Source: a virus (Duplodnaviria > Heunggongvirae > Uroviricota > Caudoviricetes). From it: DNA of 28,905 bases. Within the stretch, counting starts at the first letter, position 1. Each line of letters begins with the position of its first letter. Location: IMG/VR virus record IMGVR_UViG_2740892258_000013; one strand, 5' to 3'. Shown piece after piece: positions 3,308-8,890 of the stretch. Below the pieces are notes generated by a model. That model worked only from the letters and a program-made list of their open reading frames with translations, was not told the origin of the DNA and did not search any database. A program made the translations under genes and the position numbers.

Positions 3308-3443
3308 ATCAGCCGGGTGACCATCGTGAACATAAGGATATTTTCTGTTGTTATCCCCTATGCTCCATGGGTTTAGAAAGTCTTCCCCACCGAAAATGTA
3401 GTACAGCCAGTTGTCTTTGATACAAACTGAACCAACACCAACC

Positions 3444-3555
3444 GCAGAGTTAACTATTCCGCCCTGATAAATCTGATCAGTAACATTAACCCACTCTACG
3501 CAGAGTTAACTATTCCGCCCTGATAAATCTGATCAGTAACATTAACCCACTCTAC
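3444..3555. repeat. Exact tandem duplication, 2 x 56 bp (tailspike)
   Basis: Copy 1 is 3444-3499 and copy 2 is 3500-3555, identical by direct reading. Confidence 0.95.
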
Positions 3556-3590: not shown

Positions 3591-4766
3591 TCATAAATGT
3601 TCTTGGATAATTTCCTGCATAACGGTTATCAGGTTCTCCTCCTTCCCACTCACCAAATGCGCGCTCTTTCCTGCATAACGGTTATCAGGTTCTCCTCCTT
3701 CCCACTCACCAAATGCGCGCTCACTGCCAAAAATAATCAGCTCATCGCCAACTTTGGCAAAAGGAAGGTTTGAGTGATGAACATTATTTGGGAAGCGAAG
3801 AGAATTCCATGATGTACCTAAATCAGAGCTTCTGTGCAATGAACTACCGGGTTGAGTACTTAATGTCCCCCTGGTCGTCAGATACAGAATGCCATCATAA
3901 TATTTTACACATGGCTCAGATGCATTCGCCTCATATTCTGCAGGTATGCGTCTGCGAACAAAGCTACCAGGAGAACCGAAAGCATCAGAGAAATAGAGTA
4001 TCCCAAGCTCGCGTGGACCAATATCACCATTATGGTAGCCAACAGCAAAACTGTTATCGCTAATCGTCGCAAAACTGTGAATCTCAGTAACAGGAGTGCT
4101 TCCGTCAACAAAAGAAGGAATAGTTCCAAGACTGGTTTTTCTCCATGGTGACGAGTGAAATGATGTACCAAAACTCCAGTATCTACCCTCGTTATTCTGA
4201 TCCACATCCTGGGTATTTTGCGTCGTAACTGTAAAAGTATTTTTATCAATAACAGTAGTCACCGTCATATTCCCGGTAACACCTGTAACACCAGAGTTTG
4301 AGAAGTTGACAAAATCACCAGCAAATAATCCGTGATCAGTAATGCGAATATAAGCGACTTGCTGATTTGCTGCTTTCGTTATACCACCATAAACGCGAAG
4401 GCTGCGACTCATTGGGCGATCCCACAACTCTGCAACCTGCAGTTTATTTCCGCTCACGGTCCGCGTCTCAATTACAGCAAAAAGGCGATTTCTGACAACC
4501 CCCATACTCATGCAGTGATAGTTAACTGTGGGATAGTTTTCATGTAAATCTGTAAGCCATTCCGGCGTTGTCCAGGTCTTCCCGTCATCTCCTGAGCGAA
4601 CCCATGCAACATGGAGGTTATTTACACCATGGCGGTCTCCAGCCATAAAAGGCGCATAGATGACATTGTCATATACAAACGTTTTATCCTGCGTCCAGGC
4701 GTTGTACCACGGTGTATCTGTAATTTTAAATAACTCTCCCTGGATAAAATCTTCAGAATGTACCAC
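3591..4766 (-). CDS. Tailspike fragment: endosialidase catalytic (sialidase beta-propeller-like) region
   Basis: 391-aa ORF. Its first 19 residues duplicate the end of the upstream fragment (4622-4921) because of the 56-bp duplication at 4703-4814. Confidence 0.75.
   Translation of the reverse strand: MVHSEDFIQGELFKITDTPWYNAWTQDKTFVYDNVIYAPFMAGDRHGVNNLHVAWVRSGDDGKTWTTPEWLTDLHENYPTVNYHCMSMGVVRNRLFAVIETRTVSGNKLQVAELWDRPMSRSLRVYGGITKAANQQVAYIRITDHGLFAGDFVNFSNSGVTGVTGNMTVTTVIDKNTFTVTTQNTQDVDQNNEGRYWSFGTSFHSSPWRKTSLGTIPSFVDGSTPVTEIHSFATISDNSFAVGYHNGDIGPRELGILYFSDAFGSPGSFVRRRIPAEYEANASEPCVKYYDGILYLTTRGTLSTQPGSSLHRSSDLGTSWNSLRFPNNVHHSNLPFAKVGDELIIFGSERAFGEWEGGEPDNRYAGKSAHLVSGKEENLITVMQEIIQEHL
3611..3722. 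repeat. Exact tandem duplication, 2 x 56 bp (tailspike)
   Basis: Copy 1 is 3611-3666 and copy 2 is 3667-3722, identical by direct reading. Confidence 0.95.
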
Positions 4767-4814
4767 GGTGTATCTGTAATTTTAAATAACTCTCCCTGGA
4801 TAAAATCTTCAGAA
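4703..4814. repeat. Exact tandem duplication, 2 x 56 bp (tailspike)
   Basis: Copy 1 is 4703-4758 and copy 2 is 4759-4814, identical by direct reading. Confidence 0.95.
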
Positions 4815-4865: not shown

Positions 4866-5435
4866 TTAAATCGACTGACATCTGGAAGATGTTGATACTT
4901 TAAAAGTAAGCCCTCGCCCATCTATCTTTTCACCACCTGTTGCAACAGAAAGTAATTCTGATAGAGCTGATGTATCATCATGAACACCATCACCAATAGC
5001 CCCCCAACCTCTTACATCATAACTGTCTCTCCATCTTGCTATCTGAAGTTTTGGGTATTTATTCGCTCCATCTGTGTCTTCTAATTGCTGCCGTAACTGA
5101 TCAGGATCATACTTCAGCACATTAGGAAAATAGAACTGCTGCGCACCATACGCATCATAAACAGCCATAGAATGGCCTTGCACGGTAACGAATTTGGCAA
5201 TCTGTCCGTTATATACCGGATATCCAGCAGCGTTAATGATTATTGGTTGCGAAACAGGAACGTGAGAACCGTCTTCATTCTCCACATAGACCTGAATCTG
5301 GTTTTCTGTATTTACAGGATCAGTGTCAATTTTACCGATATAAATTTTGCCATTGGCTACGGCTTTAAAAGAACGCGCCATAGTGAAGAGTTGCGAAGGC
5401 ATCGATACGATCACATTGGCTGTAATGTCTGTCAT
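4866..5435 (-). CDS. Tailspike fragment 1: P22 gp9-like head-binding domain plus start of the receptor-binding part
   Basis: 189-aa ORF, GGAG Shine-Dalgarno upstream; ends at a frameshift-induced stop. Confidence 0.8.
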
Positions 5436-5492
5436 TTAATTTGCTCCAGATACAAGGAATCGCCGAAGCATGGCTACGGTGAATTTTGGGCA

Positions 5493-5517
5493 TAAAAAAA
5501 CCCAGCCGAAGCTGGGT
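5493..5517 (-). terminator. Rho-independent terminator after ant, upstream of the tailspike gene
   Basis: On the minus strand: stem ACCCAGC/GCTGGGT with a 4-nt loop, followed by TTTTTTTATG. Confidence 0.65.
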
Positions 5518-5535
5518 CGTTGCGTTGGTTATCTA

Positions 5536-6459
5536 TCAGTAGTTATGTACTGAAGGAGGTAATTCTTTATTCTTAAGTCTCATCCATGCGGAAAGATTCG
5601 TTGGTCCGTCTGGCTCATTAATATCAACATCTCGTGTATGGTTGATTAAAACATCTCTCGCCATTCCGATAACATACGAGAATTCATGACCGTAGTCGTA
5701 GCATCTGCCGGAATAGTTCGATTGAATTTGTTTTAGCGCCTGATACAGTTCGCGGAATAATGCCTGTGAGCGGTTGGCATAATCCCATAGCCATACAAGG
5801 CTGTTTACTTCTTTTGCAGAAAGCTCGTTGGTTTTCTTCTCTTGTTTGCCAATGAACTCACCTTCAAGTGGAACTCGAGCTGCAAGTGATAGTGCTTCGG
5901 TAAACTGCTCCTCACTGATTTCTTTGTACGAACATCCAAAATGGGATTTCAGTGACGACCACATGGTGATCATCGCCTTAGCCTGTTTTTCTTTTGGCAG
6001 AGACTGACCGCGACTCATGACGAGTTGTTTAATGGCTTCCTGCTGTTCAGTGGTGATTTTACCCTGCAACGCCTTTTTAGCTTTGCGTGGGTTAACTACA
6101 TGGCCTTTAGTCCAGTACTCGTAGAGCACATCGTCACACTCTTCCTGATACTGGATTACCTTGTCGCGGATTTCAGGGCGGACTTTGTTAGGACTGATGC
6201 TGTTCAACCAAGCTGCCAATTTTCGTAAAGCCATACAAATCATGGCTTGCACCCCACCGGCAGAAGGTATGGTGATTTCCACCATACCATTCGAGAATCG
6301 TTGAGAAATCTTCTTATGTTGAGATTTCCAGTCTAGCCCCATTCCCTCAACGATAGGTTTCATTGGGGTATACGGTTCGCCGTTGTGATTGACAACATAA
6401 AGCTCTGCGCCGTGGAATGGTACATTGATAGTAGATACTGCTGTTGCTATACTTTTCAT
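5536..6459 (-). CDS. ant: Antirepressor (Ant-like)
   Basis: 307-aa ORF immediately downstream of arc in the immI-like region. The N-terminal motif VPFHGAELYVVNHNGEPYTP resembles the P22 antirepressor N-terminal domain family (recalled). Confidence 0.65.
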   Translation of the reverse strand: MKSIATAVSTINVPFHGAELYVVNHNGEPYTPMKPIVEGMGLDWKSQHKKISQRFSNGMVEITIPSAGGVQAMICMALRKLAAWLNSISPNKVRPEIRDKVIQYQEECDDVLYEYWTKGHVVNPRKAKKALQGKITTEQQEAIKQLVMSRGQSLPKEKQAKAMITMWSSLKSHFGCSYKEISEEQFTEALSLAARVPLEGEFIGKQEKKTNELSAKEVNSLVWLWDYANRSQALFRELYQALKQIQSNYSGRCYDYGHEFSYVIGMARDVLINHTRDVDINEPDGPTNLSAWMRLKNKELPPSVHNY

Positions 6460-6522
6460 GTCGTTAATTCCTATGCGTGGTTTTACGATACCGAAGCCCT
6501 GACTGTTCCCGCAGTTGGGGCT

Positions 6523-6726
6523 TCAACTTTCTGCTCTATCAGTTATATCTTTCCCTTCGTATACTTCACCTATATTGCTAATGCTGGCAGAACATCCAAG
6601 ATGCTTGTATCTTATGATGTCCAACACGCAGTCACTACACAGCATCCGACCTGTTTCTTTAGAGTAAATGTATGTTTGATCAGCGTCTGATTCGCTAATG
6701 CCGCAGAAACAACATTCTTTACTCAT
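6523..6726 (-). CDS. Small Cys-rich (zinc-ribbon-like) protein of unknown function
   Basis: 67-aa ORF with CCFC and CSDC motifs. Its ATG overlaps the arc stop (ATGA), suggesting translational coupling in an arc-orf-ant operon. Confidence 0.5.
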   Translation of the reverse strand: MSKECCFCGISESDADQTYIYSKETGRMLCSDCVLDIIRYKHLGCSASISNIGEVYEGKDITDRAES

Positions 6727-6863
6727 ACCATCACCCCCTCTCTCTTCAAGCTGTCCAGCACCCGTTTAATTACTTCTGCGCTAAACGATCGACACTCTTC
6801 CTTTGCTTTCTCTTCAAGGATTTTTTCTAACTTCTCTGGCATACGCAGTGTTTTTACCTTCAT
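6723..6863 (-). CDS. arc: Arc-like ribbon-helix-helix repressor
   Basis: The internal Met of ORF 6723-6929 (MKVKTLRMPEKLEKILEEKAKEECRSFSAEV...) is preceded by a GGAGG Shine-Dalgarno. RHH-like N-terminus in the P22 arc position. Confidence 0.6.
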   Translation of the reverse strand: MKVKTLRMPEKLEKILEEKAKEECRSFSAEVIKRVLDSLKREGVMV

Positions 6864-6968
6864 TGCATCCTCCGCTGTATGTGGTACGCATACATAGTAT
6901 TTAGGTACGCATTGATAGTCAATAGACACCTACATATCCTGTGGTAAAAAATTATTCAGGGTGTGCCG
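6864..6968. promoter_or_regulatory. Divergent promoter/operator region between arc and the plus-strand RHH-mnt genes
   Basis: 105-bp intergenic gap between divergent RHH genes. Direct repeat GGTACGCAT at 6883-6891 and 6904-6912 (21-bp spacing). Exact promoters and operators are not defined. Confidence 0.35.
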
Positions 6969-7226
6969 ATGTCTGATCGTAAGTACAAAAACCCTCAAGT
7001 GAATCTGAGGCTTCCTGTAGAGATAAAGGAACGTCTTATTGAACTGGCTGAGGCTAATTCTCGTTCATTAAATGCTGAGATGGTCGCTGCACTTGAAGCA
7101 TGGACCGAAAAAAATAAACACATTCAAGCACTAGACCTTGCAACTATAGCATCACGATTGATAGATCTTGAACATGATGTTGAGAAGTTGAAATGCATGT
7201 ATGGCAACAATAAAGACGAAAGTTAG
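6969..7226 (+). CDS. Ribbon-helix-helix (Arc/Mnt-like) DNA-binding protein, extra paralog
   Basis: N-terminus NPQVNLRLPVEIKERLIELAEANSRSLNAEMVAALEAW fits the RHH fold and has a C-terminal extension. ATG at 6969 is preceded by AGGG; the ORF track starts at a GTG at 6963. Confidence 0.6.
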   Translation: MSDRKYKNPQVNLRLPVEIKERLIELAEANSRSLNAEMVAALEAWTEKNKHIQALDLATIASRLIDLEHDVEKLKCMYGNNKDES

Positions 7227-7249
7227 AGATACTAACTTGGAGTGATGGC

Positions 7250-7498
7250 ATGGCTAGAGATGATCCGCACTTTAACTTCCGTATGCCTTTGGAAGTAAGA
7301 GAAAAATTGAAATTAAGAGCCGAGGCTAACGGAAGGTCAATGAACTCTGAGTTATTACAAATCGTTCAGGATGCGCTATCAAAACCATCACCGATTGCAG
7401 GTTACCGTGACGAAGCAGAACGTATGGCTGATCAGCAAGCAGAAATTGTTAAGAAGATGGTGTTTGAAACCCTGAAAAAAATGTACGAGACCAGATAG
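7250..7498 (+). CDS. mnt: Mnt repressor
   Basis: 82-aa ORF, near-identical to my recollection of P22 Mnt (MARDDPHFNFRMP.EVREKLK.RAEANGRSMNSELLQIVQDALSKPSP...). GGAG Shine-Dalgarno upstream. Confidence 0.9.
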   Translation: MARDDPHFNFRMPLEVREKLKLRAEANGRSMNSELLQIVQDALSKPSPIAGYRDEAERMADQQAEIVKKMVFETLKKMYETR

Positions 7499-7540
7499 GT
7501 CAATGTTTGTTCGTTGATATAAAATAACAAGGTATACATT

Positions 7541-8140
7541 GTGATTGAGATAGGCGTTATGGCCATCCTGAATCAAGAGCCAGGAAAAATTGAAAACGTT
7601 TTTTCTGACATATCAACATCTATCGAGCGTTCAATTTCAGACTTTGATCGCAGTCATAGCGGCTCTTTGTCTAAAAAACAGGCTTCTGAAGCTCTTAGCA
7701 AGATCTACTGCGTTATGTCACCTGTAGAGGAAGTTTGCAAAAAGTACATTACATTCATTGACATATTAAGTAATGGTACAGAAGAAGATATTTCCTCACT
7801 TAATATTCAACATGACGATGTAGATATGTTGAACGATCAGATATCTAAGCTTGATTATGGTATCGCGAAACTGTTGTATACCTTCTTCATCGCTGAGAAC
7901 AGCGATGCGTGGAAGCCCCATATGTCAACTCTTACAACAATGAAAAACCACTCAATCAATACTTTTATAGAATACAAAAGGCTAACAATGGGGCTTGTGA
8001 CGCTAGCAATGCAGCACATACCACTATCATATGCTGAACCTGAAGAGTTCACTGAAGAAGAGTTGGCTTCCTTCAAGAAATCAGTTGAAGATTCACATAA
8101 AAGATTTGGCATGGAAGCACCAAAATGGAAAACCGCATAA
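7541..8140 (+). CDS. Hypothetical acidic protein, first gene of the AT-rich cassette
   Basis: 199-aa ORF with a GTG start (alternative ATG at 7559). No recognisable motifs. Overlaps the next gene by 16 nt. Confidence 0.5.
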   Translation: MIEIGVMAILNQEPGKIENVFSDISTSIERSISDFDRSHSGSLSKKQASEALSKIYCVMSPVEEVCKKYITFIDILSNGTEEDISSLNIQHDDVDMLNDQISKLDYGIAKLLYTFFIAENSDAWKPHMSTLTTMKNHSINTFIEYKRLTMGLVTLAMQHIPLSYAEPEEFTEEELASFKKSVEDSHKRFGMEAPKWKTA

Positions 8141-8544
8141 GCATTGTTGTAGATGCAGCGGCTGGACCATTAGAACAATACTTTGCGAAGGCTCTTGCAA
8201 ACTACAAAAACAGAGGCACCGTTTCAGCTTATCTTGGTAAGATTGGTGGGTTTGAGAGAAACCATCACGCCGTCTTATCGGGAATTTACAAGTCGCACAT
8301 CAGGATCCCTGGAGTAGATGATCCTTGGTTAAGAACAACGCCAATACATCGTAGAGTTAGCGATAACTTTTTGATATTTGCGGTACACAACACATATCCA
8401 ATTCATATCCAGATCATTGCTATCATTAAACCTGATGGTCATGAGAAGGTAAAAAAACTATTGCCAGCCATCATTGATATAACTGAAAAAAGATTCCAAT
8501 CTCTAAATGAGAGGGAGCTTAACTCGTTGATTTCATACAAATAA
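8125..8544 (+). CDS. YafO-family toxin-like protein (putative ribosome-dependent mRNA interferase)
   Basis: 139-aa ORF. Motifs FERNHHAVL and IIAIIKPDGHEK resemble E. coli YafO (FERVAHIHL, LLIAILKPEPHK) as recalled from memory. The function is a hypothesis. Confidence 0.5.
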   Translation: MENRISIVVDAAAGPLEQYFAKALANYKNRGTVSAYLGKIGGFERNHHAVLSGIYKSHIRIPGVDDPWLRTTPIHRRVSDNFLIFAVHNTYPIHIQIIAIIKPDGHEKVKKLLPAIIDITEKRFQSLNERELNSLISYK

Positions 8545-8566
8545 AATATCAACTAAGGGGGTTGGT

Positions 8567-8890
8567 GTGTATACAACAGTTATCGCGATAGCTATCGCAC
8601 TCATTGTGGTTCAGTACCAACTGGCATCTTTAAAACAAAAGATATCTGACCTCAAGACTGAGAACGAAGCACTTAAAAACTCAATAAAAGATGAGAAGAA
8701 CAAACTATCATTCACTATATCTGATATTGAGCAATCCATTGAAATTATTGAGAATAATATTAACAGATTAAAAAAAGAAGATATTCATGAAATCAATGAC
8801 AATATCAAGGATTTGAAATCTTGGCTTAGGAATGTAGGACAAATCGCCACATCAACACGAGATAAGCTCAATACATCCATGGATGATTAA
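8567..8890 (+). CDS. Small membrane protein with N-terminal transmembrane helix and coiled coil
   Basis: 107-aa ORF with a GTG start preceded by a strong AAGGGGG Shine-Dalgarno. Hydrophobic N-terminus (YTTVIAIAIALIVVQY) followed by heptad-like charged sequence. Its stop abuts the convergent gp16 stop. Confidence 0.6.
   Translation: MYTTVIAIAIALIVVQYQLASLKQKISDLKTENEALKNSIKDEKNKLSFTISDIEQSIEIIENNINRLKKEDIHEINDNIKDLKSWLRNVGQIATSTRDKLNTSMDD

Follow-up and report, generated by a model that had tools for sequence, protein, structure and literature searches.

A mosaic variant of the P22-type immI region in a CUS-3-like prophage of Escherichia coli K1

Introduction

The secondary-immunity (antirepressor) region immI of phage P22 is a textbook circuit, and its repressors Arc and Mnt are model ribbon-helix-helix (RHH) proteins. 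In the P22-type immI of phage epsilon34 the order is mnt, Omnt (GGTCCACCGTGGACC), Oarc (ATAGTAGAGTGCTTCTATCAT), arc, sar and ant, and the region lies between a gene-16 homologue and the tailspike gene. Divergent RHH repressor genes surround overlapping promoters, and the two operators are different palindromes: Omnt lies at the start of Pant, and Oarc within the spacer of that promoter. Here we analyse a viral sequence of 28,905 nucleotides (IMG/VR record IMGVR_UViG_2740892258_000013; this whole stretch is referred to as the window), in which a preliminary description had pointed to positions 6523–7498 as a rearranged immI-like region. Every feature that it listed was found in place. The region is the antirepressor region of a CUS-3-like E. 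coli K1 prophage, and represents a variant of the known system.

A 2008 comparison of P22-like phages reported that CUS-3 apparently lacks arc, and that another control of ant would hence be required (PMC2629481). The phages ST64T, ST104 and L carry lone mnt genes, which persist, as in CUS-3, in an ant moron that lacks a cognate ant (PMC2629481, PMC8022706). These lone-mnt phages are without arc and ant; by contrast, the orphan mnt of CUS-3 described here stands behind the putative cognate Mnt-family repressor of an ant. Antirepressors have been shown to be able to inactivate non-cognate repressors (PMC3121763). Our literature search found no paper on the alternative cassette described below or on a ClpX-type gene beside ant.

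Results

Over window positions 5400–8600 the sequence is that of Enterobacteria phage CUS-3 (CP000711), a P22-like Lederbergvirus whose host is E. coli RS218, at 100% identity, and from approximately window position 4891 to the end the CP000711 coordinate equals the window coordinate plus 36. The region was placed in the 'ant moron', with the gene-16 homologue on one side and the tailspike gene on the other, the slot that holds immI in P22. As in a P22-type immI, a gene with both the N- and C-terminal P22_AR domains is present between these two neighbours, a sar antisense RNA covers the ant ribosome-binding site, and divergent RHH repressor genes flank overlapping promoters; the P22 Mnt and Arc operators were not found in CUS-3. 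Homology to epsilon34 and P22 extends across ant and sar up to approximately position 6528 (ant, Psar and sar are 90–93% identical) and returns at approximately 7229 with the mnt leader (ATAC..TAACTTGGAGTGATGGC-ATG), and sequence comparison places a recombination junction at 7227–7249 (+ strand), where this leader homology restarts. Between approximately 6529 and 7229 the DNA is different and the intergenic sequence unrelated. The P22 arc and the whole Pant/Pmnt/Oarc/Omnt block are swapped for another cassette, of unrelated specificity, and the region is a mosaic immI that is P22-like on the ant side and on the far side from mnt onward. The proposal of a rearranged immI was thereby borne out: relative to P22 and epsilon34 there is one more RHH gene, probably of the Mnt family, on the mnt side, and an additional open reading frame (ORF) between arc and ant.

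The alternative cassette consists of an 85-residue RHH protein gene (here RHH85), a 105-bp divergent control region (6864–6968, identified by a promoter scan and an alignment of ten loci) and a 46-residue Arc-like gene. The scan predicted a leftward promoter serving the Arc-like gene, the Cys-rich ORF (here ZB67) and ant (−35 TTGACT, 6922–6917; −10 TACTAT, 6899–6894; − strand), and a rightward promoter serving RHH85 and mnt (−35 TTGATA, 6912–6917; −10 TATCCT, 6935–6940; + strand). The two promoters stand back to back with overlapping −35 boxes, and both hexamer pairs are kept in the ten loci, which come from seven genera. Over them lies a putative operator array of three 21-bp units (6876–6938), at 6876–6896, 6897–6917 and 6918–6938, reading TGTATGTGGTACGCATACATA, GTATTTAGGTACGCATTGATA and GTCAATAGACACCTACATATC, respectively. 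Within the 28.9-kb window the core GGTACGCAT has exactly two copies, which lie 21 bp apart at 6883 and 6904 and form part of a longer repeat matching in 14 of 16 bases; a third core at 6925, which the preliminary description had not listed, is degenerate in CUS-3 (GACACCTAC) and reads GGTACGCAC in Photorhabdus. Unit 1 doubles as a 19-bp imperfect palindrome (TGTATGTGGTACGCATACA) over the predicted leftward transcript start, unit 2 occupies the spacer of the leftward promoter, and unit 3 that of the rightward promoter. The logic is that of P22, though the sequences are unrelated and three direct units stand in place of two different palindromes. A terminator-like match at 6876–6894 (+ strand) was rejected, being the unit-1 palindrome without a proper T-tract.

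The periodicity and the conservation of this array both argue for a functional site. The lag-21 self-match of the CUS-3 core is 23 of 41 positions (P ~0.002 in a shuffle test that scored the best lag between 5 and 35), and lag 21 gave the top self-match in five of six lineages. The intergenic cores of the ten loci align without gaps, and the 62-bp core (6876–6937) is 81–97% identical to CUS-3 across genera, compared with 60–67% nucleotide identity for the flanking Arc-like and RHH85 genes. Since the non-coding core is more conserved than the genes on either side, it would represent a dense promoter-operator complex, and the earlier suggestion that the direct repeat is a candidate operator has become a well-supported one; units of the GGTACGCAT type are a putative operator site.

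RHH85 (6969–7226, + strand) was identified through its match to Pfam Arc (E = 3.3e-10), with the β-strand PQVNLRLP and a C-terminal extension of ~35 residues, so that the second RHH gene with an extended C-terminus that had been noticed ahead of mnt is confirmed. The extension contains a putative helix with a heptad pattern, judged by eye, over residues 55–78. The best PHROG match of RHH85 is family 795, the same as for Mnt (E = 7e-26 over residues 1–82), and it shares 32% identity over 77 residues with the neighbouring CUS-3 Mnt (BLASTP, E = 5e-11); Pfam Repressor_Mnt was not matched by RHH85. These matches suggest that it is a divergent Mnt-family protein. The contact triad Q-N-R of P22 Arc occurs in its β-strand, and the strand motif K-N/H-PQVNLRLP is nearly invariant among homologues, as is the repeat motif. 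Judged by its position, RHH85 would be the cassette's own cognate maintenance repressor. On the opposite strand, the Arc-like gene (6723–6863, − strand; Pfam Arc, E = 3e-08, 33.8 bits against a cut-off of 20.4) heads the ant operon, is preceded by the Shine-Dalgarno sequence GGAGGA (6873–6868), and is labelled 'Arc family DNA-binding protein' in RefSeq. The P22 Arc contact residues Q9, N11 and R13 are missing from it, the aligned strand VKTLRMP having V, T and R instead.

A scan that took one genome per species found RHH85 homologues, 48–59% identical, in Arsenophonus, Phlomobacter, Xenorhabdus, Photorhabdus and Chimaeribacter. Of the eight loci, seven have a small Arc-like gene in divergent orientation to the homologue, with an antirepressor-like gene behind it; the eighth, Xenorhabdus sp. 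L018, lacks an upstream Arc-like gene. Overall, the cassette stands divergent to an antirepressor gene in seven genera. Salmonella phage SEN22 (NC_028696) has an RHH85 homologue 82–83% identical, a control core 95% identical, and a divergent Arc-like gene that also starts MKVKTLRMP; its ant, disrupted by an insertion sequence (IS), follows the Arc-like gene directly, with no Cys-rich ORF between them, and in place of a P22-type mnt a convergent toxin-like gene follows the RHH85 homologue. In E. coli AST240 mnt is absent, and the other four genes (RHH homologue, Arc-like gene, Cys-rich ORF and ant) are all present. P22-type mnt is likewise missing from the cassettes of Photorhabdus, Xenorhabdus, Phlomobacter, Chimaeribacter and Arsenophonus; in the last of these the RHH85 homologue is followed by another RHH gene of a different kind, which resembles the O157-type repressor (50% identity over 46 residues). 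Among 17 IMG/VR contigs with a CUS-3-type (type-I) cassette, eight carry P22-type mnt and nine do not. Because the cassette occurs elsewhere without P22-type mnt, mnt, and not RHH85, is the added gene; the preliminary description was right that one RHH gene is extra, and had assigned that role to the wrong one. At least 80% of the segment 6460–7500 was found in 44 of 5426 complete E. coli genomes.

Next to the same ant/ZB segment there are at least four more immI control cassettes (L025, L045, L008 and L014), in which the palindromic operators are unrelated, examples of their palindromes being GATAGCAAAGTG...CACTTTGCTATC, GAACCACCGTGGTTC and GTCACCGTGAC. Since these cassettes carry quite different palindromes at the same ant side, immI has several specificity types, and comparison of the sequences indicates that it exists as interchangeable specificity cassettes, with at least five operator types seen. 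In Arsenophonus nasoniae (L015, 2501–3200) a tandem RHH array is present, with the RHH85 homologue followed by a 79-residue Mnt-like gene of another type and then by a third RHH start (MTKKYPSQEMDRFNIRMP...), apparently interrupted by IS-related sequence.

The P22-type mnt of CUS-3 (7250–7498, + strand, 82 residues; Pfam Arc, E = 1e-27, 96 bits; Repressor_Mnt, E = 2.5e-15, 56 bits) has an RHH domain, a C-terminal tetramerisation domain and the contact residues R2, H6, N8 and R10, and its N-terminal 13 residues (MARDDPHFNFRMP), including the DNA-contact strand, are identical to those of epsilon34 Mnt. It starts 23 nt after RHH85, and is probably read from the RHH85 promoter, since the promoter and terminator scans predicted neither element in the gap. 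The Mnt operator GGTCCACNGTGGACC was searched for at up to three mismatches in 15 bases, with epsilon34 as the positive control (perfect match). Neither the window nor the complete 40.2-kb CUS-3 genome contains it, nor does the immI region of any locus with both RHH85 and mnt; the one three-mismatch match, in L049, falls outside the control region and apparently inside ant. The nine mnt copies in the RHH85 context represent at least six alleles, all of them intact and with the Shine-Dalgarno sequence retained. Changes in the RHH domain among these orphan alleles comprise 16–18 synonymous and 1–2 non-synonymous differences, the proportions per site reaching 0.57 for synonymous (pS) and ~0.01 for non-synonymous (pN) changes, a pN/pS of ~0.02. 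The orphan mnt is under strong purifying selection, and is not decaying.

The ant side of the mosaic begins with ant itself (5536–6459, − strand), which is annotated as ant in CP000711 and encodes a P22-type antirepressor of 307 residues (Pfam P22_AR_N, E = 1.1e-45; P22_AR_C, E = 5e-29). Within its 5' end lies a Psar-like promoter (6425–6453, + strand) with TTGATA, a 17-nt spacer and TG-TATACT, matching at 10 of 12 positions with an extended −10 and located where Psar is annotated in epsilon34. The sar antisense RNA (6461–6528, + strand) matches Rfam RF00262 over its full length 1–68 (84.6 bits against a cut-off of 43, E = 1.3e-17). It spans the entire spacer between the Cys-rich ORF and ant, as P22 sar spans the arc-ant spacer in the epsilon34 annotation, and its terminator hairpin (arms at 6493–6505 and 6512–6524) overlaps the stop codon of the Cys-rich ORF. 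Neither sar nor its promoter had been listed in the preliminary description.

ZB67 (6523–6726, − strand) encodes 67 residues with the pattern C-x2-C...C-x2-C, and its ATG overlaps the TGA of the Arc-like gene as ATGA (GTATGAGT), with a Shine-Dalgarno-like GGGGGTGA upstream; the reported succession of Arc-like gene, coupled Cys-rich ORF and ant was therefore recovered in full. It belongs to PHROG 7150 (E = 3e-50), a family of unknown function. A word-indexed search of 5.8 billion proteins returned only near-identical E. coli copies, and an exhaustive HMMER search of 1.84 billion representatives returned 13 matches, of which 12, all long repetitive proteins, were discarded as compositional, leaving a single true distant homologue (P0014, 68 residues). 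A profile search added P0019, present in hundreds of Salmonella contigs and named 'ClpX-type ZB domain-containing protein' in UniRef. Both sit exactly between arc and ant in Salmonella P22-like prophages. At their start they share 4 nt (ATGA or GTGA) with the arc stop, and they end directly beside the sar terminator; the frame, its length of 67–68 codons and residues C5, C6, C8, C30 and C33 are kept at 32–35% protein identity. In IMG/VR, 29 intact ZB67 copies are linked to three different Arc/Mnt-like cassettes, the junction lying inside arc near KAKEECRSF, and ZB67 therefore belongs to the constant ant side.

Alignment of ZB67 with the N-terminus of E. coli ClpX by hhalign gave P = 1.5e-4, with all four Cys aligned and 36% identity over 33 columns. 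Like the N-terminal zinc-binding domain of ClpX (PF06689, PDB 2DS5), ZB67 has C-x2-C...C-x2-C followed by a helix; unlike ClpX, it is a stand-alone protein of 67 residues without the AAA+ module, and its two Cys pairs stand three residues further apart. Pfam (E up to 10, including PF06689), NCBIfam and PADLOC gave no match for ZB67, and the only Pfam match of the Salmonella homologues was zf-C4_ClpX, at 13.2 and 10.2 bits against a cut-off of 27. An AlphaFold2 (AF2) model shows two hairpins and a helix, zinc-ribbon-like, with a pLDDT of ~74 for residues 1–40. A Foldseek search of the PDB returned no significant match; 2ds5_A ranked 16th (2.2 Å over 43 columns, 30% identity, target-normalised TM score 0.64, E = 0.72), and the treble clefs of RING and ZZ domains scored much like it. 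The RING domain of RNF4, found in a PDB sequence search (E = 0.005), was rejected as a generic treble clef in which only the first two Cys pairs align. Collectively, these comparisons suggest a consistent though weak resemblance of ZB67 to the ClpX zinc-binding domain.

Several further observations concern ZB67 and its relatives. A block of ~55 bp that runs from the last part of the Arc-like gene through the first nine ZB67 codons (~6700–6760, and L008 3970–4030) is ~90% identical between E. coli and Salmonella, with the rest of the Arc-like and ZB genes ~50% identical; its role could lie in recombination, as a patch, in translational coupling, or in both. A 112-residue protein from a Logan assembly (P0001) has an Arc-like protein fused in frame to ZB67 (...KRGGDG-MSKECC...), caused by either a 1-nt difference at the ATGA junction or a sequencing error. 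In O157:H7-type lambdoid prophages (L005 2537–2917; L052–L062) the sar-ZB segment lies among tail genes, the ZB frame is shifted by an extra T run in the CCFCG codons, and arc has a premature stop in most copies. In Salmonella P22-like prophages that carry ZB genes (L008 2968–3504, also L009–L013), a 178-residue ClpP-like gene (Pfam CLP_protease, E = 1.2e-12) overlaps the mnt stop, with a DUF1902 gene and a HicA-toxin gene nearby; the presence of ClpP-like and ClpX-zinc-finger-like genes on the two flanks of the same immI may or may not be coincidence.

The annotation of these genes differs between records. In CP000711, RHH85 and mnt are both called 'mnt', no coding sequence (CDS) is given between ant and RHH85, and record positions 6505–6986 (window 6469–6950) are annotated as 'bsq2; boundary sequence', a 482-bp interval that contains sar, ZB67, the Arc-like gene and most of the control region. 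In the RefSeq genome of strain NU14 three 'Arc family DNA-binding' genes are called and the Cys-rich ORF is not; ZB67 is unannotated in CP000711 and in the three RefSeq records inspected, which were annotated with the Prokaryotic Genome Annotation Pipeline (PGAP).

Outside the immI region, three ORFs follow mnt on the same strand (7541–8890), with no terminator predicted: orf199 (PHROG 18235, function unknown), a 139-residue YafO-family toxin-like ORF (Pfam YafO_toxin, E = 3e-11) overlapping orf199 by 16 nt, and hkcB. This group may be a lysogen-expressed toxin or defence pair; PADLOC returned nothing meaningful for the ORFs downstream of mnt. Exact 56-bp tandem duplications (2.0 copies, 100% match) occur at 2311–2422, 3443–3555, 3611–3722 and 4703–4814, and a 1-bp insertion relative to CP000711 at ~4890. 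Three of the duplications and the insertion fall within the endosialidase tailspike gene, which is broken into ORFs 3591–4766 and 4866–5435; because the duplication period is always 56, an assembly or joining artefact, rather than biology, is suggested. The heptanucleotide tract of neuO (GAGTCTT, complement AAGACTC; 2044–2106) has nine copies, compared with 19 in the CUS-3 record, a difference that fits its being a phase-variable repeat.

Discussion

We favour a joint reading, to which we give a probability of about 0.6, in which the region is a mosaic immI, RHH85 is the cognate repressor of the alternative cassette, mnt acts in trans, and ZB67 is a real zinc-ribbon protein. In the lysogen, RHH85 would be made from the rightward promoter, oligomerise through its C-terminal coiled coil and bind the phased units over the leftward start and spacer, keeping the Arc-like gene, ZB67 and ant silent. 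Upon infection or loss of RHH85 the leftward promoter would be turned on, after which the Arc-like protein would close both promoters and the sar RNA would block translation of ant. The P22-type mnt, carried in the RHH85 transcript and without an operator in its own phage, would provide a stacked heterotypic immunity: Mnt would repress Pant, and hence ant, of superinfecting or co-resident phages with a P22-type immI, so that their antirepressor could not induce the prophage. The P22-type operator block, present in 173 of the 5426 complete E. coli genomes, represents the potential targets. ZB67 would be made together with the Arc-like protein, in a fixed ratio, each time the ant operon is switched on, and our best guess is that it may assist the induction or anti-immunity programme as an accessory factor, perhaps by acting on recognition that depends on ClpX.

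Several points weigh against this reading. RHH proteins were matched to units by position and co-conservation, and the three Arc-like subtypes differ in their β-strand (VKTLRMP, PSSVRFP and PVSVRMP) while the control core hardly changes, so that no unit stands out as the Arc-like operator. GTGGTAC at 6881–6887 shares five of seven bases with the Mnt half-site GTGGACC, and a diverged site that P22-type Mnt tolerates could escape the operator search; purifying selection on mnt could also predate the recombination, having acted in non-orphan contexts. For ZB67, the ClpX-type assignment falls under every curated threshold. Among 31 E. coli-type copies only five sites vary (two synonymous, three non-synonymous), and pN/pS is ~1 between two Salmonella alleles, which makes dN/dS uninformative for this gene. 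O157-type prophages have the ZB67 frameshift even where arc is intact. As evidence that the segment is non-coding, the O157:H7 copies were set aside, because arc is a nonsense allele in most of them and the prophages look decaying; in the arc-intact copies (L053 and L055) the frameshift means no more than that those prophages can do without ZB67.

Two alternatives concern mnt. The preliminary description had raised an extra layer of antirepressor control, which would mean that RHH85 and the P22-type Mnt are two maintenance repressors of their own phage's region. Both proteins fall in the PHROG family of Mnt and are probably co-expressed, the three related units exceed the strict need of one repressor, and GTGGTAC is weakly like a Mnt half-site. 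Against this stand a Mnt contact strand that is the one of P22 and epsilon34, the failure to find its 15-bp operator at up to three mismatches in the whole phage, and the retention of the control core, including all three units, in loci without P22-type mnt; the sequence does not support the extra layer, and we regard this arrangement as very unlikely. The second alternative, also unlikely, is that mnt does nothing and is simply left over from the recombination by which the alternative cassette arrived. In its favour are the lack of an operator in cis, a junction exactly at the start of the mnt leader, the very high genetic flux known for this region (PMC2629481) and the absence of mnt from about half of the type-I cassettes. 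A relic is hard to reconcile with nine of nine copies being intact, with the excess of pS over pN in the RHH domain, with the persistence of lone mnt in other P22-like phages (PMC2629481), or with the independent stacking of a different Mnt-like gene in Arsenophonus.

A further alternative is that the Cys-rich ORF is not a gene, and that the segment, a 'boundary sequence' that codes for nothing, is retained as a recombination patch or RNA element. The CDS-free annotation of CP000711 and the lack of a PGAP call in three RefSeq genomes agree with this; so do the near-invariance of its DNA (six haplotypes among 31 copies) beside neighbouring cassettes that differ, the pN/pS of the Salmonella pair, and the ~55-bp block conserved over the arc stop and ORF start. 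A non-coding segment would not be expected to keep a frame of 67–68 codons with five invariant N-terminal Cys at such low protein identity, a start that overlaps the arc stop behind a Shine-Dalgarno-like sequence, and a stop that abuts the sar terminator; membership of a PHROG family, the ClpX profile similarity that aligns all four Cys, and the two-hairpin-plus-helix model also argue for a protein. We consider the non-coding alternative decidedly doubtful, and ZB67 very probably a real gene. Far more speculative, and improbable as it stands, is the idea that ZB67 is a stand-alone mimic of the ClpX N-domain, made only when the antirepressor operon fires, that would re-route ClpXP proteolysis at the lytic switch. 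If this were true, ZB67 would heterodimerise with ClpX N-domains or titrate their ligands, possibly stabilising the lambda-O-type replication initiator of CUS-3, and the ClpP-like gene in the mnt operon of some Salmonella relatives would suit a Clp-centred layer of the lysis-lysogeny decision.

These results correct the CUS-3 record, in which the Arc-like gene and ZB67 lie inside a segment labelled as non-coding 'boundary sequence', and they add to the ant operon a small unannotated gene that would be translationally coupled to the Arc-like gene. The cassette type, kept from E. coli to Photorhabdus, offers a natural experiment in RHH-operator recognition, in which RHH85 presents the Arc triad Q-N-R on a Mnt-like scaffold, yet would face a different operator. 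Purifying selection on an operator-less mnt suggests that prophages stack heterotypic Mnt repressors, and a stacked Mnt would protect the prophage from induction by the antirepressors of other phages.

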